Made by a program: the position numbers and the translations under genes | Notes under the pieces: generated by a model | What the model was told of the DNA's origin: nothing | Seen by the model: only the letters and a program-made list of their open reading frames with translations | Databases searched by the model: none | Shown here: positions 5,931 to 15,812 of the stretch, one piece after another | How positions within the stretch are numbered: the first letter of the stretch is position 1 | How the letters are laid out: every line of letters starts with the position of its first letter | Assembly (NCBI GenBank): GCA_012060505.1 | Contig: GCA_012060505.1_3027.2 | Reading direction: 5' to 3' (one strand) | Source: a phage | DNA length: 15,812 nt

Positions 5931-6899
5931 TTATTTCAGAAGAGTAACCTCAGCGATTTCTTCCCAACCGTTTTTGTCGGTCATAATAAAGTCAGCAAGA
6001 TAAAGAGCAGTACGCAGTGAAACATTGCGTAAACGATTAACATTGACTTTCATCCATGATAATGCTTTATAAGTTTCTTCATCAGAAAGACCGCGCTTTT
6101 GCATCATGTCAGTTGAAAGAATAACATCTTCAACCCTGACCATAATTTCTTCATTAGTGTGAACACCCAAATCCAAATAAACTGAGCGGGACACTAATGC
6201 TTGTAAATGTGGAGCAAGTTTAGTACCACGGTCTAATTCGCGGTCAATATCAACGTTTGTGATAAAAACAATCGTTCCTTTAAATTCAAACTCACGCTCA
6301 ATGCCTTTTTCTTCTAAGTAAGAAGATGCAGTGCTCCAGCAGACTTTACGGGTCTCTCCAGTGTCCAGAGCAGCTTTTAGAAGATTAAGAATGTCCATAT
6401 CAGAGAAAACATCCACATCATCAATCAAAAGGACAGAATTCTCTTCACGATTATTCCAAAGCTGTTCATAAAGACCAATACCAGAGATTTTACCATTAAT
6501 GCTTTTATACTCAATGTATCCAATATCATTTGCTTTATTTAAAGCTTTATCTAAAGAATACGTTTTACCAATACCTGCTGCTCCCGAGATAATTAATGAA
6601 CGAATGTTTCCGTTAATAATACCATTCGTCATCATTCCCATAACATTAAATCTTTTATTAATGCGGGTTTTCATATCTTCATACGATTCTTTAACTTCTT
6701 CAACTTTTACACCATCATATGAAATGTCTGATTTGTAAACCCAAACACCGCGACGTTTACCGTCAATTTCAACAAAAACTTTACCATCTCCTTGTGCATC
6801 TACCGGAGCATTATCTGGGAACCATTCGCCTAAGAGCTCAAAAGTTCCAGAGATTTCTTTACCGAAGTAGATACCCTTATTGATAGTTACAGTTTTCAT
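5931..6899 (-). CDS. AAA+/P-loop ATPase-like protein, 322 aa
   Basis: Walker A SGAAGIGKTY, Walker B-like VLLIDDVD, sensor-like IVFITN; start ATG 6897-6899 with SD GGAGAAT, just downstream of the promoter at 6934-6963. Confidence 0.8.
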   Translation of the reverse strand: MKTVTINKGIYFGKEISGTFELLGEWFPDNAPVDAQGDGKVFVEIDGKRRGVWVYKSDISYDGVKVEEVKESYEDMKTRINKRFNVMGMMTNGIINGNIRSLIISGAAGIGKTYSLDKALNKANDIGYIEYKSINGKISGIGLYEQLWNNREENSVLLIDDVDVFSDMDILNLLKAALDTGETRKVCWSTASSYLEEKGIEREFEFKGTIVFITNVDIDRELDRGTKLAPHLQALVSRSVYLDLGVHTNEEIMVRVEDVILSTDMMQKRGLSDEETYKALSWMKVNVNRLRNVSLRTALYLADFIMTDKNGWEEIAEVTLLK

Positions 6900-6933
6900 T
6901 TTATTCTCCAAATCCGTATCAGTTGATAGTTGT

Positions 6934-6963
6934 ATAGTACCATAAAGCTTTATGCTTGTAAAC
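6934..6963 (-). promoter_or_regulatory. T4-early-type sigma70 promoter
   Basis: Minus strand: GTTTAC - 18 nt - TACTAT with TGG extended -10; sits immediately downstream of the terminator at 6986-7013. Confidence 0.6.
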
Positions 6964-6985
6964 AATTTTGTGAAAAAATTTTTGA

Positions 6986-7013
6986 AATAAAAAAAGGGAG
7001 CCCGAAGGCTCCC
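6986..7013 (-). terminator. Intrinsic terminator, 7-bp GC stem with UUCG loop and U-run
   Basis: Minus strand reads GGGAGCC-ttcg-GGCTCCC followed by TTTTTTTATTT, directly after the TGA of gene 7016-8029. Confidence 0.8.
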
Positions 7014-7015
7014 TA

Positions 7016-8029
7016 TCATTTATAATAACTTCGGTGGTTTTCAAGATAGACCTTCTCAAGGAAGTCATCCCAGAAACCCATGTCTACTTTTTGCTGCATA
7101 CCGTTCTTAGAAGCTTCAATAGATGCTGCTTCTACTTGATCGACCACATCTTCCAAAAACTCTTGAACTGTTTTAAATGGATGTTTACCCAACTTCACGT
7201 CGAGAATAAATGGAGCATCTTGAAGTGGATAAACCAAGTCACCAGTTTTGTAAATTTCCAATAGTTGAAGTCCACCACGGCAAGCATGGCTCAGAGCTTT
7301 CCAGTCAATACCTTCATTGGCTTCGGCCTTACGAGCACGTTCACCGTATTCGGCATCAAGTTTATTCAAAGACTGCTTAAGCTCAATAAGAGAAAGCGTT
7401 GTCTGATATTTACGACCCAACACAGTGTAGAACGTTTGTGGACCGGTTTTCTCATGATTATGGAATACCCATTCACAAAACTCGTTTTCAGGGAGTCGGT
7501 GTTTGATATCTTCTACCTTAGTTCGGCGTAAACGATCTGGAATTCCCTCTTGGTAATCAACCCACTGGTCAGGGATTTGATTAACTACTTTCAATACATC
7601 ACGTAATGCGGCCAAACGAGAACCCTTGACACCGTATTTAGAAGCTTGCTTGCGAACATATCCTAAATAGGATTTCATGTTAGTCGTATAAAAACGAGAA
7701 CGATTGTCTTGAATAAACTTCCATACATCAGGCAAATCAGATTTAACTACCAGTTCAAGTGGAGTGTGGAGCATATCCAATGCTACGGTTTCACCATCTG
7801 CTGCTAATTTAAAGAAATATTTAAGACTGTATAGTTCATGGTCAATATCATCTTTGGTGTTTTTAGATGATGTGTTGTTAGTGTTTTTACTCATATGCTC
7901 TTTGACATTTCCGATAAGAATATCGCGAGCAGGAGGAACAAAGATTTCTTTAAAATCTACATCAGATTCTGGAGTAGAAGTTCCATAAAGATGACTACCA
8001 AAATAGCTTTTCATTACTGTTTTCATCAT
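7016..8029 (-). CDS. Pol-beta-superfamily nucleotidyltransferase-fold protein, 337 aa
   Basis: N-terminal motif GSHLYGTSTPESDVDF (G[SG]-x9-13-D-x-D) plus downstream acidic ALD; ATG 8027-8029 overlaps the upstream stop as ATGA. Confidence 0.75.
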   Translation of the reverse strand: MMKTVMKSYFGSHLYGTSTPESDVDFKEIFVPPARDILIGNVKEHMSKNTNNTSSKNTKDDIDHELYSLKYFFKLAADGETVALDMLHTPLELVVKSDLPDVWKFIQDNRSRFYTTNMKSYLGYVRKQASKYGVKGSRLAALRDVLKVVNQIPDQWVDYQEGIPDRLRRTKVEDIKHRLPENEFCEWVFHNHEKTGPQTFYTVLGRKYQTTLSLIELKQSLNKLDAEYGERARKAEANEGIDWKALSHACRGGLQLLEIYKTGDLVYPLQDAPFILDVKLGKHPFKTVQEFLEDVVDQVEAASIEASKNGMQQKVDMGFWDDFLEKVYLENHRSYYK

Positions 8030-8487
8030 TCAGCCTTATATTCAATAACAGGACATACTTTAGCTTTACGAGCTTTTAAAAATTCAACGATAATCGATTT
8101 CTTGGGTTGAATAGGAGGTAAACCTTTATACGCCCTATCAATATTTTCTACGTGTAAAGCATAGTCCTTTTTCCATTTATAATCTTTATATTTTTCACGC
8201 AGTTGTGCAGGAATAACAAATGAACCGATAATAAGTAAAACAACCAAAAGCGCAAGTATAAATGCTGATGGAAGCAAAGTCCATAAACTACCGAAAATAA
8301 GCCAACGTTGTAGGCTTTCTGCACAAATAATTGTTAGCCCTATGAGTATAGTACACCCAAAAATAGAAACGAAAAATGTAGGTATGGCAATAGACCAAAA
8401 ATATGCGCATAGTGTCTTAGGTCGTTGCCATTCATCGTTAAACAATTTGAATAATTTATAGTGCCAAGAGTTTTCATTAATAATCAT
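8026..8487 (-). CDS. Predicted multi-pass membrane protein, 153 aa
   Basis: ORF track; ATG 8485-8487 with SD AAAGGA; three long hydrophobic segments. Confidence 0.7.
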   Translation of the reverse strand: MIINENSWHYKLFKLFNDEWQRPKTLCAYFWSIAIPTFFVSIFGCTILIGLTIICAESLQRWLIFGSLWTLLPSAFILALLVVLLIIGSFVIPAQLREKYKDYKWKKDYALHVENIDRAYKGLPPIQPKKSIIVEFLKARKAKVCPVIEYKAE

Positions 8488-8489
8488 AA

Positions 8490-9011
8490 TTATCCTTTCA
8501 TTGAAGGCGTAACGGTTGTTAAATACTTAATCATAGCTTCAGCTTCTGATTTTGATAGTGAAATTTCTTCACCGTTTTGGCGAATAGAAACAAAATCTGG
8601 ATGACGATCACCACCAGCTTTTAAAACACACATATAAGTATCAGCTTCGCCTTCAATATTTGAAATGATTGAAGCAGTTCCACACGAATGTGGTTTTTGA
8701 TAAATCAATACAGCTTTTCTTCCACCATTTGACTGTTCATAGGCTTTTAATACATCAAACAAATCAGTTCTTTTATCAATAGCTAAAATGTTATTTTCAT
8801 CTTCAATGTTAAATCCTTCGGATACTTCATAAAGCGTTACCCATAAATCGCCAATATCAATAACAGCATTTACTTTTCCACGGCTTTCAAGAGTATGACA
8901 AATTTTCTTGATTTCGTCATAACTCATTTTAATAATATCATCTCCTTGACTAAGGAAGATGTCATTTTTAAATTCAACACGAATTAAACCGCTTCCACTT
9001 GAAATAAACAT
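8490..9011 (-). CDS. Hypothetical 173-aa protein, paralog of the next gene
   Basis: ORF track; ATG 9009-9011 with SD GAGGAAAT; C-terminus EAEAMIKYLTTVTPSMKG resembles the C-terminus of the 9018-9560 product. Confidence 0.7.
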   Translation of the reverse strand: MFISSGSGLIRVEFKNDIFLSQGDDIIKMSYDEIKKICHTLESRGKVNAVIDIGDLWVTLYEVSEGFNIEDENNILAIDKRTDLFDVLKAYEQSNGGRKAVLIYQKPHSCGTASIISNIEGEADTYMCVLKAGGDRHPDFVSIRQNGEEISLSKSEAEAMIKYLTTVTPSMKG

Positions 9012-9017
9012 ATTTCC

Positions 9018-9560
9018 TCACTTTGAAATCATAGTTGGAATTACAGAATCAAGATAAGTCTTTAGTGCAATAGCTTCGTCTTTGGTAAATGTGACAATAT
9101 GTGCTCGAGAATCATCAATTTGGCGAACAAGTACGACATCGCCATCTTCATAAGAAGTCTTGACATCCAAAGTCGTAGTATAATTTGCAGCTACTGGATT
9201 AATAATGCTAGCACCGCGATCTTTAGCCCATTGAAGTTTAGCCTTTTCGGGTGTTTCGACTGTTTCAGATTCTAAGAATTCTTTCACCTTGACAACGAAT
9301 GTTGCCCAATTGCTGATAGAAAGACACATAAATTCAGTTTCAATATTACCGCCGTAAAGGCCACGATAAAAACGAACTTGGAGGTCGTCTGTAATATTAG
9401 TTACACCGGTAACTCCTGAGGGAGCATAAGATAAAATCGCAGCCAGTTCCATAGGAAGAATAGTAATACTATCGTCTTCCTGCGTCAGAACGTATACATT
9501 ACCACGTTTTTCGATAACCAGGTCACCGAACAAATCAGTTGTTTCAATTACAGCTTTCAT
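9018..9560 (-). CDS. Hypothetical 180-aa protein, paralog of the previous gene
   Basis: Track ORF begins at a TTG; ATG at 9558-9560 is used instead; C-terminus DEAIALKTYLDSVIPTMISK. Confidence 0.65.
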   Translation of the reverse strand: MKAVIETTDLFGDLVIEKRGNVYVLTQEDDSITILPMELAAILSYAPSGVTGVTNITDDLQVRFYRGLYGGNIETEFMCLSISNWATFVVKVKEFLESETVETPEKAKLQWAKDRGASIINPVAANYTTTLDVKTSYEDGDVVLVRQIDDSRAHIVTFTKDEAIALKTYLDSVIPTMISK

Positions 9561-9561
9561 A

Positions 9562-9747
9562 TTATTTACCAATTAAAGTTTCAATATAAGAATCAAGATT
9601 TACTTTAGCTTCTTCCATAAGAGTTTTGTATTTAATCTTGTTGGCATGTCCGGAGAAAGCTGATTCATCAATAACTGTTGCTGTATGAACAGCTTTGCTA
9701 TATGTTTCAATTAATTCTCTTAATTTAAAAGCCTGCTCACTTGTCAT
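9562..9747 (-). CDS. Small helical protein, 61 aa, member of a ~60-aa paralog family
   Basis: ATG 9745-9747 follows SD AGGAG by 6 nt; N-terminus MTSEQAFKLRELIETYSKAV. Confidence 0.6.
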   Translation of the reverse strand: MTSEQAFKLRELIETYSKAVHTATVIDESAFSGHANKIKYKTLMEEAKVNLDSYIETLIGK

Positions 9748-11702: not shown

Positions 11703-12284
11703 CTAACCGAGCTTTTTAGTTAATTCATTCCAATGTTTTCTACACAAAGAAACATAAATTTCATCACCAATACAGATTTGATTACCTTCTTTAACTGGTG
11801 TTCCATCTTCCATTAATCGAGCTGTCATAATCGCTTTTTTGCCGCAATGACAAACTGCCTTTAGTTCAATAAGTTTATCTGCAATCGCTAAAAGTTCTTT
11901 AGAACCTTCAAACAATTTTCCAGCGAAATCAGTCCTTAATCCATAAGCCATAACAGGAACATTATATGTATCAACAATTCGACTTAATTGATGCACCTGT
12001 TCAGTTTTTAAAAATTGGGCTTCATCTACAAATACGCAATGAATATCTTTTTGTGCTTCAGCCCATTTATAGAACTCGAAAATATCCATATCATCTGTAA
12101 TAATATTCGCTTCCTGTTTAATTCCAATGCGAGAAACAACTTCACAGACAGAATCGCGAGTATCAATAGCAGGCTTAAGAACTAATACACTCATTCCACG
12201 TTCTTTATAATTATGTGCAGCAGTCAAAAGAGAAGCAGATTTTCCAGCATTCATTGCTGCATAAGTAAAAATTAAACTCGCCAT
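11703..12284 (-). CDS. tk: Thymidine kinase, 193 aa
   Basis: P-loop AAMNAGKS at the N-terminus, C-terminal Cys cluster (CHCGKK ... CIGDEIYVSLCRKH) typical of type II thymidine kinases; SD AAGGTGA. Confidence 0.93.
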   Translation of the reverse strand: MASLIFTYAAMNAGKSASLLTAAHNYKERGMSVLVLKPAIDTRDSVCEVVSRIGIKQEANIITDDMDIFEFYKWAEAQKDIHCVFVDEAQFLKTEQVHQLSRIVDTYNVPVMAYGLRTDFAGKLFEGSKELLAIADKLIELKAVCHCGKKAIMTARLMEDGTPVKEGNQICIGDEIYVSLCRKHWNELTKKLG

Positions 12285-12293
12285 ATCACCTTC

Positions 12294-12479
12294 TTAAAGC
12301 GTATTCACATAAGCTATTAATTCATTTTCTTTCTTATCAAACCGATCAGCAAATTCTTCCTGCTGTTCGGGAGATAGCGGGCCGTATTCATCATAAAAGG
12401 TGTTTGCTTCTGTATGCTCATCTAGAAGTTCATGGATAAGCTCAAACAATTTATCTTTTTGTTCTTTACTCAGACTCAT
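12294..12479 (-). CDS. Small acidic helical protein, 61 aa, paralog-family member
   Basis: ORF track; ATG 12477-12479; N-terminus MSLSKEQKDKLFELIHELL. Confidence 0.6.
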   Translation of the reverse strand: MSLSKEQKDKLFELIHELLDEHTEANTFYDEYGPLSPEQQEEFADRFDKKENELIAYVNTL

Positions 12480-12649
12480 ATATTAATTTCCAGGAGTTTT
12501 AAAATAATTCGCTTTTGCTTAAATATTTCCATAGTTAAATGACCAGTATCTTTTTGACCGATTCCAATGGCAAAACCTTTATTAACAGCGAGTTCAATTA
12601 AATTATCAAGCTCACGTAACACTTCGTATTGTAACTCAAAACTATTCAT
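12476..12649 (-). CDS. Hypothetical 57-aa protein (below ORF-track threshold)
   Basis: Manual translation MNSFELQYEVLRELDNLIELAVNKGFAIGIGQKDTGHLTMEIFKQKRIILKLLEINI; ATGA overlaps at both ends link it to its neighbours. Confidence 0.5.
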   Translation of the reverse strand: MNSFELQYEVLRELDNLIELAVNKGFAIGIGQKDTGHLTMEIFKQKRIILKLLEINI

Positions 12650-12852
12650 TTTGGTTTACCTTCTTTAACGAAATCAGGATAAGGATAAAATCCTGAATAA
12701 AATCCTTCACCTTTATGATTGATGCATCCTTTATTAGAACAATAGCACCAATAATCGAAATCACAAGCCATTTCATCATTACATAAAGCAAAAACAACCG
12801 GCCACTTACACTTTTCACAATGGGCATTTTTAAGAATACTAGTTTGGCTCAT
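12646..12852 (-). CDS. Small Cys-rich protein, 68 aa, probable zinc binder
   Basis: Start taken at ATG 12850-12852 (ATGA overlap with upstream stop); seven Cys including CEKC and CYC. Confidence 0.6.
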   Translation of the reverse strand: MSQTSILKNAHCEKCKWPVVFALCNDEMACDFDYWCYCSNKGCINHKGEGFYSGFYPYPDFVKEGKPK

Positions 12853-13061
12853 AACCATGTCACCTTCAAGCAATATTCTTCTACATGCTGTTTACGACCT
12901 TTCTTATCAATAAAGGTATATTCAACGAATGTTCCAATGTAGTCTTTATCTACATCATGTGGACTATTAATTGGACGTTTAGTACGGCAAATGCGTTCCC
13001 ATTGACGAATAATTACTGCTTTGTTTTTAGGATCAAACGGATGTGGGTAATGTACTTTCAT
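12849..13061 (-). CDS. Hypothetical 70-aa protein
   Basis: ORF track; ATG 13059-13061 with SD GTGGTGGA; overlaps the 3' end of the macro-domain gene by 29 nt. Confidence 0.5.
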   Translation of the reverse strand: MKVHYPHPFDPKNKAVIIRQWERICRTKRPINSPHDVDKDYIGTFVEYTFIDKKGRKQHVEEYCLKVTWL

Positions 13062-13512
13062 AATCCACCACTATTAAATCAATATCAGGAGTAAACATGT
13101 CGATTAATTTAGAAACTTTATCCCAATCGCCGGCAGCAATACCACAACCTATACGTGGAATGTAAATTACCGGTTTAAACAAAAGGGTTTCTGCCTGTAG
13201 ATTTAATTCTATCATGCAGTTTACTAAAGCACCATAATCAAGATTAGGACCTGGTTCGTATTGCGTATACAAGTTATAACATATGCCAAAACCATTAGGT
13301 TTATGTTTAAAAACAATAGACATATCGCCTAATTTATCACGAGAACCGTACTCAGTTGTGGTCTTATCTATTTCTAAAATTTTGGGGTAGGCTCTTGCTA
13401 ATTGACCCGCTACACCTGAACCCATAGTATGAAAACAGTTACACCCGTGCGCAATAATATTACCTTCAAGAAAGAGGGCGACAATATCGCCCTTGATATA
13501 TTTTACAATCAT
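13033..13512 (-). CDS. Macro-domain-like (ADP-ribose-binding/processing) protein, 159 aa
   Basis: Motifs HGCNCFHTMGSGVAGQLA and PRIGCGIAAGDW resemble the N-x-x-N...GGGV and G-I-x-G loops of macro domains; ATGA overlap with vs stop. Confidence 0.7.
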   Translation of the reverse strand: MIVKYIKGDIVALFLEGNIIAHGCNCFHTMGSGVAGQLARAYPKILEIDKTTTEYGSRDKLGDMSIVFKHKPNGFGICYNLYTQYEPGPNLDYGALVNCMIELNLQAETLLFKPVIYIPRIGCGIAAGDWDKVSKLIDMFTPDIDLIVVDYESTLPTSV

Positions 13513-13856
13513 CTAGTACTCAATCCTCGATTATAAGAATCTACCAAACGGTCAACCATTGAATGACAAGCGGCTTTATCTTTCTCCTCCGCAACTGAAC
13601 ATTCTAAGGTATTCCACTTTTTAGCATATCGTTTTAACAATGTATCATTTTTATATCTGCTTGATTTATCTCTTTCTCCGTCTTTATATGCATATATTAA
13701 TTTCTGCGCAAATTCAGCTTGGCATGCTTTATTTTTCCCACAATAATCTGCTGCAGTGCGGTTCACATACTCCCTAATTTCAGTATATGATGTATCTGCT
13801 GACGCATAAGCAGAAAATGAAATTAATCCTATACATAAAACCAAAATTTTAGTCAT
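13509..13856 (-). CDS. vs: Secreted 115-aa protein in the position of T4 vs (valyl-tRNA synthetase modifier)
   Basis: N-terminal signal peptide MTKILVLCIGLISFSAYASA; length and position between tk block and regB fit T4 vs by recall. Confidence 0.6.
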   Translation of the reverse strand: MTKILVLCIGLISFSAYASADTSYTEIREYVNRTAADYCGKNKACQAEFAQKLIYAYKDGERDKSSRYKNDTLLKRYAKKWNTLECSVAEEKDKAACHSMVDRLVDSYNRGLSTR

Positions 13857-14394
13857 TTACTATTTCCAAAAGTTTATTATTTTTAAGGTAATTAGCCTTT
13901 TCTAGGACTTCAGAAGCATATTTAGAACCTGCTTTAACATTCCATCCCGAATTATAAGAGGATATTGCTTTTCTTATATCACCCTTATGTATATTTAACC
14001 AATAAGAAAGTTCAATGTACGCCCAGGAAGCTGAATTGGATCGTTTATTCAACATTCTTTTTATTTCAGCATCGGTCATATTATAACCAAGTTCCTTAAC
14101 TCTCGCTCGCATAGTAGGCAAATAATTTTGGAACATTCCGTAGGCGTGATGCTTTGGTTTAGATTTTAAATTAACTCCGCCAGAGCTTTCTTGCCATAAA
14201 ATGGCAGCCATTATATGACCTAATCCGCTCTTGTGGATATTTTTGTGTGTTTTATATTTTCCATCCTTAGAAAACTGTTCCCCGAATTGATACGCGTAAC
14301 GCATGTTATCGAGTTGGACATTACTGAAAGTATGCTCGGAGCTATGTGCCATCATTGAAATGGCCAATAGACCAGCGAGTAGTGCTTTTCTCAT
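13849..14394 (-). CDS. Secreted lytic-transglycosylase-like (SLT-domain) protein, 181 aa
   Basis: Signal peptide MRKALLAGLLAISMMAHS; catalytic-region pattern WQESSGG ... AYGMFQ typical of SLT domains; SD GAGGT. Confidence 0.75.
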   Translation of the reverse strand: MRKALLAGLLAISMMAHSSEHTFSNVQLDNMRYAYQFGEQFSKDGKYKTHKNIHKSGLGHIMAAILWQESSGGVNLKSKPKHHAYGMFQNYLPTMRARVKELGYNMTDAEIKRMLNKRSNSASWAYIELSYWLNIHKGDIRKAISSYNSGWNVKAGSKYASEVLEKANYLKNNKLLEIVND

Positions 14395-14401
14395 GCTTAC
14401 C

Positions 14402-14863
14402 TCATTGAGTTTTAATTACTGCTTTAGAAGCCTTTCCTGGTAAACGACGACTGTTGATAATTGCCATCCTGCATTGAAGTGACGGGTTTTTGAACTTCTC
14501 ATTAGGCTTACAAACCGTAAATCCAAGCCAAAGATTTCCATCTGTGATTTCTAAACGTCCAGGACGATATTCAACCCCATCAATAAAATCCTCGTCAATG
14601 TCAGGACGCGGAGGCATACTCAGGAATTCATTAACTTCTAAAACATGGTCTTTTATTTTATGGAATAATTCAAAAACATATGTCTCATCAATCTCCCGTT
14701 GAATTGCACGATCAAGAAGATGCTGAGAATACTTTAGATGAAACGATGAGACCCCTGCTGCTTTTGATACCTCACGAATCTCATTGTTAATTTGACGAAA
14801 CTCCGACTCAAAGTGACGACGAAGCTTATTTCGACGGATAAAAACTTCTGTGTTGATAGTCAT
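14402..14863 (-). CDS. regB: RegB-like sequence-specific endoribonuclease, 153 aa
   Basis: Length 153 aa and position next to vs with its own early promoter match T4 regB by recall; SD GAGGAGAAT. Confidence 0.7.
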   Translation of the reverse strand: MTINTEVFIRRNKLRRHFESEFRQINNEIREVSKAAGVSSFHLKYSQHLLDRAIQREIDETYVFELFHKIKDHVLEVNEFLSMPPRPDIDEDFIDGVEYRPGRLEITDGNLWLGFTVCKPNEKFKNPSLQCRMAIINSRRLPGKASKAVIKTQ

Positions 14864-14890
14864 GTTATTCTCCTCTTAACTGATAGAAAA

Positions 14891-14920
14891 ATTATACCAC
14901 AGTCAAGAGGAAAAGTAAAT
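14891..14920 (-). promoter_or_regulatory. T4-early-type sigma70 promoter upstream of regB
   Basis: Minus strand: ATTTAC - 18 nt - TATAAT with TGG extended -10. Confidence 0.6.
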
Positions 14921-14922
14921 AG

Positions 14923-15201
14923 TTATTCTTTAAATCTAATCAATTTATTCATAGACTTTGAAACTTCTGCACGAACCTCATGTAAGTTTTTAAGCTGTTC
15001 AAGACGCTGCTCATAGTAAGCAATTTCATCTTCTTCGAGACAGTCCTGTGAATCTTCTTTAAGATAACGTGCATAGTCCTGGAAAGCTTTACGGACTACT
15101 TCCTGGAAATCATCAAGACTTTGAATTTTCTTAGGAGCGACAGATACACGACGAGGGGCAGTATAATACTCATAACCAAACCCTGCACTTAATTGAGCCA
15201 T
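14923..15201 (-). CDS. Hypothetical 92-aa protein
   Basis: Track ORF begins at a GTG; ATG at 15199-15201 forms a TAATG overlap with the upstream stop and is preferred. Confidence 0.55.
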
Positions 15202-15467
15202 TAGTATTTTTCCTCTGGTTGGAACACTGCACGACAAGCCCACATACTGGCTTCTTTGAGTTTCGTTTTAGCAATAGTTAACTGATCGAGGCTTTCAGCA
15301 TAATTCTTCGCGAGTTCATCATCTTCACAGCTATCAAATGCTTCCCAAAATTCATCGTATAAAGCGTCAAAGATAAGTCCCAAACGAACTTCAGCGTCTT
15401 TAATAGCATTTACTTTACCGATTTTTTCGTCGGTATGTGGCTTATAACCTTTAATATCTTCAATCAT
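15201..15467 (-). CDS. Hypothetical 88-aa acidic protein
   Basis: Track ORF begins at a TTG; ATG at 15465-15467 has SD GAGGAAG and is preferred. Confidence 0.55.
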
Positions 15468-15681
15468 ATTTGACTTCCTCACCAGTACATAAATCATATT
15501 CAACTAAACGAATAGGTTCATGAATGCCATATCCTTGAACAGAAATTTCTGTCGTAGGATAAATTCCATCAATATCACTCATGTTCCATGCTTCGTTAAA
15601 TTGCTGTTCGCCTGAATTACTAAACCACTCGGCGAAAGCATTTAGCACATCTTCAGAACCTTCAATAATTATCTTTGCCAT
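15460..15681 (-). CDS. Hypothetical 73-aa protein
   Basis: ORF track; ATG 15679-15681 overlaps the stop of the GrcA-like gene as TAATG. Confidence 0.6.
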   Translation of the reverse strand: MAKIIIEGSEDVLNAFAEWFSNSGEQQFNEAWNMSDIDGIYPTTEISVQGYGIHEPIRLVEYDLCTGEEVKYD

Positions 15682-15812
15682 TACAAACTCTCGGTAAAGG
15701 TACGAGCGATAACGTCGCGCTGCTGTTCCGGAGTCAGAGAGTTAAAGCGAACTGCATAACCGGATACACGGATGGTCAGCTGCGGATATTTTTCCGGATG
15801 CTTAACTGCATC
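15682..15812 (-). CDS. Autonomous glycyl-radical cofactor (GrcA/YfiD-type), C-terminal 43 aa only; gene starts beyond window end
   Basis: Minus-strand translation [43 protein letters not shown]-stop carries the PFL-type glycyl-radical motif RVSGYAV; segment is about 49% GC. Confidence 0.85.

Follow-up and report, generated by a model that had tools for sequence, protein, structure and literature searches.

The window analysed here, a stretch of 15,812 nucleotides of phage DNA, carries a diverged allele of the T4 gene tk.4, whose product is a true macrodomain and is likely to act as an orphan antitoxin-like ADP-ribosyl glycohydrolase, removing from single-stranded phage DNA the ADP-ribose that DarT2 attaches to thymine, by a Gln84/Asn25-type chemistry. 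The gene, its macro domain and the anti-DarTG2 role of the T4 ortholog are already known. New to this analysis are, first, the presence of Gln84 in place of lysine in the Tk.4 family and, second, the mosaic origin of the allele.

Background

An A1pp/macro motif was reported in tk.4 orthologs in 2006 (PMC1524935), and GenBank labels these orthologs 'phosphatase', 'contains A1pp phosphatase motif' or 'macro domain protein'. In a T4 transposon screen described in a preprint of November 2025, tk.4 was the single gene specifically required on a host expressing darTG2, and a clean T4 tk.4 knockout was sensitised to DarTG2, the gene being named adfM (bioRxiv 10.1101/2025.11.20.689424). This sensitivity fits the earlier report that T2 and T4 remain resistant to DarTG2 without adfA and adfN (PMC11825919). 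The T4 evidence for protection against DarTG2 is genetic, comes from a preprint and concerns the T4-type allele, which is also carried by T2 and T6. For gp104 of phage PhiKZ, removal of the DarT2 ADP-ribose from a TNTC oligonucleotide has been shown biochemically (PMC13309987, Cell Rep 2026). The initial annotation of this DNA described the gene as encoding a macro-domain-like protein, a description which stands as far as it goes, and it missed both the identity with the known gene tk.4 and the status of a diverged allele.

A T4-like locus with an intact tk.4

The window comes from the genome of a T4-like (Tequatrovirus) coliphage. Around tk.4 it holds a 2.3-kb stretch that is 98% identical to many Tequatrovirus genomes, and the neighbours upstream of tk.4 include vs.1 and regB, 100% and 98.7% identical to those of T4. 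The tk.4 (adfM-type) coding sequence is one intact open reading frame (ORF) on the minus strand (13033..13512) that encodes a stand-alone macrodomain of 159 aa. It is flanked on the same strand by two synteny anchors, namely vs, the valyl-tRNA synthetase modifier gene, upstream (13509..13856; 99% identity to T4 Vs and only 46% to JS98 Vs), and tk.3 downstream (12849..13061; 94% identity to Tk.3 of T4 and 73% to that of JS98). This ORF is the positional ortholog of T4 tk.4: the slot between vs and tk.3 belongs to a gene order common to T4, T2, T6 and JS98, the window protein is 58% identical to T4 Tk.4 over 155 aa (E=2e-70), and it matches PHROG 335 with E=6.7e-70.

The stop codon of vs and the start codon of tk.4 overlap in an ATGA (13509..13512, minus strand), an arrangement found likewise in T4, which suggests that the two genes are translationally coupled. 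A scan for sigma-70-like promoters over 12200-15812 gave 13 sites against 13.3 in shuffled sequence, that is, no excess, and the sole site at an expected place lies upstream of regB (14919-14891). Inside tk.4, at codons 7-15, a terminator-like scan picked out a hairpin with a GC-rich stem of 8 bp, AGGGCGATATTGTCGCCCT, and a T-rich run after it (13475..13493, minus strand). The hairpin is identical in T4 and R5505, its stem is retained in JS98 despite flanks that are only about 55% identical, and it occurs in every examined IMG/VR relative (L086-L126) that encodes KGDIVAL, with a compensatory change from G-C to A-T in L098. Some distant relatives have hairpins of other sequence at the equivalent codons, and a 'terminator' feature under the tk.4 match is present in several GenBank annotations. 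The hairpin may work between vs and tk.4 as an attenuator or as an element governing mRNA stability.

The product is a minimal macrodomain

The macro-domain call of the initial annotation is confirmed by Pfam, by PHROG 335, by the comparison of a homolog profile with solved macrodomains, and by an AlphaFold2 model searched with Foldseek. The Pfam Macro family (PF01661) matches at 31 bits, above its gathering score of 22 (E=2.7e-7), over profile positions 2-117 of 118, and a profile of 65 homologs matches macrodomain structures with E down to 4.6e-19. The AlphaFold2 model of the window protein, for which the input alignment held 64 sequences with the T4 sequence left out, has a mean pLDDT of 93.5 and a pTM of 0.88 and takes the three-layer alpha/beta/alpha macro fold; Foldseek gives a probability of 1.00 for this model against TARG1, Poa1p, BT1257 and DarG. 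The glycine-rich loops 1 and 2 are conserved, with G33, A35, G122 and G124 invariant and M30 nearly so among 64-65 homologs. The domain is minimal and without extensions, and the nearest structures are TARG1, DarG, SCO6735 and BT1257. On the strength of the Pfam, PHROG, profile, model, Foldseek and loop evidence, we place the protein in the minimal ALC1/TARG1-like class described in PMC7050489.

A putative glutamine-type active site

The translation, the invariant columns and the alignments locate the candidate active-site elements on the minus strand: loop 1 with the active-site segment HGCNCFHTMGSGVAG (residues 22-36; 13405..13449), the NLYTQ motif (residues 80-84; 13261..13275), in which N80, Y82, T83 and Q84 do not vary, and the diphosphate-binding loop 2, PRIGCGIAAGDW (residues 119-130; 13123..13158). 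Apart from the loop residues named above, the set of positions invariant in the 64-65 homologs comprises H22, G23, N25, D49, G62, N80, Y82, T83, Q84, G88, P119 and I121.

Asn25 is equivalent to N22 of DarG, N27 of SCO6735 and N23 of PhiKZ AdfM. In the profile alignment Gln84 falls on the catalytic Lys84 of TARG1 and Ala126 on its Asp125; the TARG1-type Lys84/Asp125 dyad is absent from the window protein. Alignment to two DarG macrodomains, with an M. tuberculosis sequence that is 100% identical to PDB 5M3I, puts Gln84 on Lys80 and Asn25 on Asn22, and the active site of PhiKZ gp104 is N23/K78 (PMC13309987). BT1257 and SCO6735 have NMIGQHG where Tk.4 has its NLYTQ region, and V25, N27 and Q85 of SCO6735 (chain numbering minus 20) stand opposite G23, N25 and Q84 of the window protein. 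The BT1257 glutamine was misplaced in a 10-sequence MAFFT alignment, for which reason the HMM profile and the pairwise alignment of BT1257 with SCO6735 were relied on instead; a PDB search with a C-terminal fragment, aimed at the glutamine region of SCO6735, recovered loop 2 and nothing else. Because Gln84 and Asn25 align with Q85 and N27 of SCO6735 and the lysine of DarG and TARG1 is replaced, the Tk.4 family is assigned from its alignments to the Gln-type (SCO6735/BT1257 type) enzymes, unlike the Lys-type DarG, TARG1 and PhiKZ gp104.

What is known of SCO6735 gives this assignment its meaning. The enzyme hydrolyses thymidine-linked ADP-ribose on DNA, and the substitutions Q85A/E and N27S abolish this activity; Gln85 positions the distal ribose, a backbone-held water acts, and Lys89 and Lys94 in the mobile loop after the glutamine are implicated in DNA binding (PMC9411070). 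The mobile loop of the window protein, QYEPGPNLDY, is shorter, acidic and without lysine when set against QHGMKTGSKGAPVRY in SCO6735.

An allele imported from another phage genus

Sliding DNA identity against T4 and JS98, together with protein identities, delimits a Dhakavirus-type patch at 13020..13470 within the Tequatrovirus backbone. DNA identity to T4 is 92-100% through regB, vs.1, vs and tk.3 and drops to 38-73% at about 13030-13420; identity to JS98, a Dhakavirus, is 87-94% over most of tk.4, against 43-70% over most of regB, vs.1 and vs, with a brief peak of up to 81% within vs.1. At the protein level, the window Tk.4 is 93.7% identical to that of JS98, while Tk.4 of T2 is identical to that of T4 and Tk.4 of T6 is 98.7% so. 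The first 66 nt of tk.4 in the window are exactly the T4 sequence, and in the first 36 residues the window protein and T4 Tk.4 have only three differences. The tk.4 of the window is thus a cassette swap of about 450 bp, by which a diverged allele was imported from another phage genus. At the other end, the end of tk.4 and the start of tk.3 overlap by 29 nt (13033..13061, minus strand; ORF coordinates and DNA alignment with T4), because 13 nt of T4 are missing at the 3' junction of the cassette. The overlap encodes a low-confidence tail, ...YESTLPTSV (pLDDT 64 for the last residues), and JS98 has a 29-nt overlap of tk.4 and tk.3 too.

A tblastn search found a tk.4 homolog in 2757 of 50,697 phage records. 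The window allele is found at an identity of at least 90% in 319 records of the phage database and the T4-type allele in 224; a further 159 records have an allele 80-90% identical to that of T4 (e.g. AlbertHofmann, 84.5%), and 114 have alleles 60-80% identical to that of the window. Among sequenced T4-like coliphages the window allele is the most frequent form of tk.4, whereas the allele behind the T4 genetics is the T4-type. Both alleles retain all the family-invariant residues. Their divergence is located in the beta-hairpin 64-79, the helix 93-114 and the C-terminal third (secondary structure from the model), and synonymous sites between them are saturated where DNA identity is 38-68%.

One position in loop 2 calls for comment. 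At codon 127 (13132-13134) the window has Ala (GIAAGDW), whereas R5505, P0001 and the JS98-type have Gly (GIAGGDW), T4 has Lys and TARG1 has Arg. The idea that G127A inactivates the enzyme was rejected, since the functional T4 allele has Lys there and TARG1 has Arg; judged from these sequences, the change to Ala127 is probably tolerated or neutral.

With two or more tk.4 alleles that are 58% identical, maintained at comparable frequency in Tequatrovirus genomes that are near-identical elsewhere, and swapped between genera as a cassette, it is conceivable, if unlikely, that the alleles are non-equivalent, each being tuned to its own DarT2 variant, through catalysis or DarT binding, or else to its own kind of ADP-ribosylated base or nucleic acid. 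Were this true, tk.4 would encode an anti-defence enzyme whose alleles form a balanced polymorphism driven by an arms race.

Other features were observed elsewhere in the window. The tk.1/tk.2 region at 12290-12850 is unlike that of T4, with tk.1 absent. The ORF at 12294-12479 is a JS98-type tk.2, with 90% identity to that of JS98 and 54% to that of T4, and makes up a second Dhakavirus-like patch. The ORFs at 12476-12649 and 12646-12852 match RB32ORF110c and RB32ORF111c of T2/T6 (95-98%), genes absent from T4; the protein resembling ORF111c is rich in cysteine (CxxC...C...CxC...C). At 8026-9011 the homing endonuclease gene mobD of T4 is absent, and in its place stand two ORFs, one 98% identical to RB32ORF096c of T6 and the other 96.5% identical to RB32ORF097c of T6, the RB32ORF097c-like one having the Pfam domains T4_y05I_N and T4_y05I_C (putative transcription factor). 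A MobD.1-like ORF of 184 aa (9018-9572) is only 51% identical to T6 MobD.1, a strongly diverged allele in a conserved block. Within 5931-8029, an nrdC.10-like ORF (362 aa) gives weak, below-threshold Pfam matches to AAA/STAND-NTPases, and the nrdC.11 ORF (337 aa) matches RlaP (E=7.7e-12), a DNA polymerase beta family nucleotidyltransferase of an RNA repair pathway.

Proposed function and alternative explanations

The mechanism we propose would run as follows. The gene tk.4 would be transcribed with the pre-replicative vs-regB gene block. Once host DarTG2 is triggered, DarT2 ADP-ribosylates thymine at TNTC motifs in single-stranded phage DNA. The ADP-ribose is predicted to bind in the cleft between loop 1 (HGCNC..MGSGVAG) and loop 2 (PRIGCGIAAG), where Tk.4 would hydrolyse the N-glycosidic bond between thymine and ribose and so restore replicable DNA. 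Hydrolysis would follow the scheme of SCO6735 and not the lysine scheme of DarG and TARG1: Asn25 would hold Gln84, Gln84 would position the distal ribose, and a backbone-held water would act.

By analogy with the T4 ortholog, we infer that the window allele acts on the same substrate and likewise counters DarTG2. Points against this reading are the identity of only 58% between the window protein and the T4 allele used in the genetics, the replacement of the Lys-rich DNA-binding loop of SCO6735 by QYEPGPNLDY, and Ala127 in loop 2 where close relatives have Gly. There may also be other substrates, the macrodomains of this class being promiscuous in vitro.

The general idea of the initial annotation, that a phage macro domain could erase ADP-ribose marks, gains support from the genetics of the T4 ortholog and from the SCO6735-like active site. 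Its two suggested substrates, the marks of Alt/Mod enzymes and ADP-ribose-derived defence signals, are not the best supported, as the T4 genetics point to thymine-linked ADP-ribose made by DarT2; and its view that sequence alone does not reveal the substrate is now too pessimistic, given that Asn25/Gln84 matches the thymidine-ADPr hydrolase SCO6735 (PMC9411070).

Among the alternatives, a quite improbable one is that Tk.4 is a small-molecule hydrolase with ADP-ribose-1''-phosphate phosphatase or O-acetyl-ADP-ribose deacetylase activity, serving metabolite clearance and not DNA repair. The older label 'phosphatase / A1pp motif' carries this implication, but it comes from a domain match and not from an assay, and a small-molecule activity would leave the DarTG2-specific knockout phenotype of the T4 ortholog unexplained. 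We know of no source of Appr1p (a Tpt1/KptA-type pathway) in T4 infection. Of the Poa1p residues that a structural study probed (His23, Ser30 and Phe152), alignment pairs His22 with His23 and Thr29 with Ser30, while Phe152 is unalignable; the histidine does not discriminate, as it is conserved also in the glycohydrolases TARG1, SCO6735 and BT1257.

Very improbable, too, is a role as a protein or RNA de-ADP-ribosylase, acting either on the phage's own Alt/ModA/ModB marks or on host defence marks (mRNA marks of the CmdTAC type, or uracil-linked ADP-ribose on RNA). An mRNA ADP-ribosyltransferase defence does target T-even phages, and RNA ADP-ribosylation, uracil bases included, is reported as reversible. 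T4 Alt, ModA and ModB are arginine-specific transferases. Erasure of their marks, as the initial annotation had it, is unlikely because the substrates of macrodomain hydrolases are Asp/Glu esters, O-acetyl-ADPr and nucleic-acid-linked ADPr, whereas arginine-ADPr is a substrate reversed by ARH1/DraG-type enzymes (PMC7050489). Glu/Asp-linked ADP-ribose on proteins is also removed by TARG1 and SCO6735 (PMC9411070, PMC7050489); against such an activity in Tk.4, the Lys84/Asp125 dyad which serves TARG1 on protein esters is replaced by Gln84 and Ala126, and no link of tk.4 to protein- or RNA-ADP-ribosylating systems has been reported from genetics.

It is hardly credible, finally, that the protein is non-catalytic, sequestering ADP-ribose-derived immune signals (Thoeris gcADPR) or inhibiting DarT2 by direct binding, since the strict invariance of Asn25 and Gln84, residues on which catalysis depends in SCO6735 and DarG, points to an enzyme, the nearest structural relatives are all hydrolases, and the phage Thoeris sponges Tad1 and Tad2 have unrelated folds.

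Implications

As a discovery this is small, the gene and its macro domain being annotated in hundreds of phage genomes, and the additions to research on DarTG and phage counter-defence are modest. With a Gln-type rather than a Lys-type site, the proposed mechanism and the mutants of choice (Q84, N25) differ. With a commonest allele that differs from the T4 allele tested, the DarTG2 resistance of therapeutic T4-like phages is not to be assumed from T4.

Comparison with known systems

In phmmer comparisons the window protein scores 206 bits against T4 Tk.4, 82-110 bits against stand-alone bacterial relatives, with which the phage Tk.4 family clusters, 40 bits against BT1257, 32 against SCO6735, 26 against M. 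tuberculosis DarG, 19 against TARG1 and 8 against PhiKZ gp104 (5-8 for Tk.4 proteins overall), whereas PhiKZ gp104 scores 72-91 bits against DarG. The 80 closest relatives in bacterial genomes are 33-43% identical, are encoded by ORFs of about 150 aa and come from Rhodobacteraceae, Desulfobacterales, Verrucomicrobia and others; 75 of them have the NxYTQ motif, and loop 2 is mostly GAGLAGGDW. A tblastn search with P. aeruginosa DarT2 as query found no DarT2 homolog within 4 kb of any of the 80, and when their 719 flanking ORFs were clustered, no family recurred in more than 12 loci, the top clusters being taxon-specific synteny or spurious ORFs. An origin of the protein as a fragment of a DarG operon was rejected, as these bacterial relatives have neither a DarT2 partner nor a conserved neighbour beside them.

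Compared with DarG of the DarTG2 systems (M. tuberculosis, 5M3I; T. aquaticus, 5M31/5M3E), the window protein lacks the C-terminal DarT-binding domain, its neighbours are vs and tk.3 whereas DarG sits in an operon with darT, and the catalytic Lys80 is exchanged for Gln84, with Asn22 retained as N25. Its sole PADLOC and NCBIfam matches are weak ones to the macro part of DarG: NF048014 scores 24.5 bits against a cutoff of 250 over model positions 2-142 of 338, and the protein stops at residue 159. Tk.4 probably works like DarG, yet it is not a member of the DarG family.

With T4 Tk.4, that is AdfM (anti-DarT factor Macrodomain), the window protein has in common the slot, the length class (155 and 159 aa), PHROG 335 and the invariant residues; it differs in loop 2, GCGIAAGDW against GAGIGKGNW in T4, and in the 9-residue tail that overlaps tk.3. 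SCO6735 of Streptomyces coelicolor and BT1257 of Bacteroides thetaiotaomicron are stand-alone ALC1-like proteins about 25-29% identical to it (32-40 bits); the mobile loop of the phage and bacterial family, NxYTQ(Y/F)xPGxN, is shorter than that of SCO6735 and without the lysines implicated there in DNA binding. Human TARG1/OARD1 has the Lys84/Asp125 dyad against Gln84/Ala126 here, and yeast Poa1p resembles the window protein in sequence mainly in the N-terminal half.

PhiKZ gp104 AdfM is also an orphan phage macrodomain that counters DarTG2, but it is DarG-like with Lys78. Because only 5-8 bits connect the two and gp104 is DarG-like, the T4-type and PhiKZ-type AdfM are independent recruitments, and the name AdfM now stands on two unrelated phage macrodomains, the Gln-type, SCO6735-like T4 Tk.4 and the Lys-type, DarG-like PhiKZ gp104. 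If the Gln-type chemistry holds, Tk.4 would be a counterpart of DarG and of PhiKZ AdfM that was recruited independently and differs from them in mechanism.
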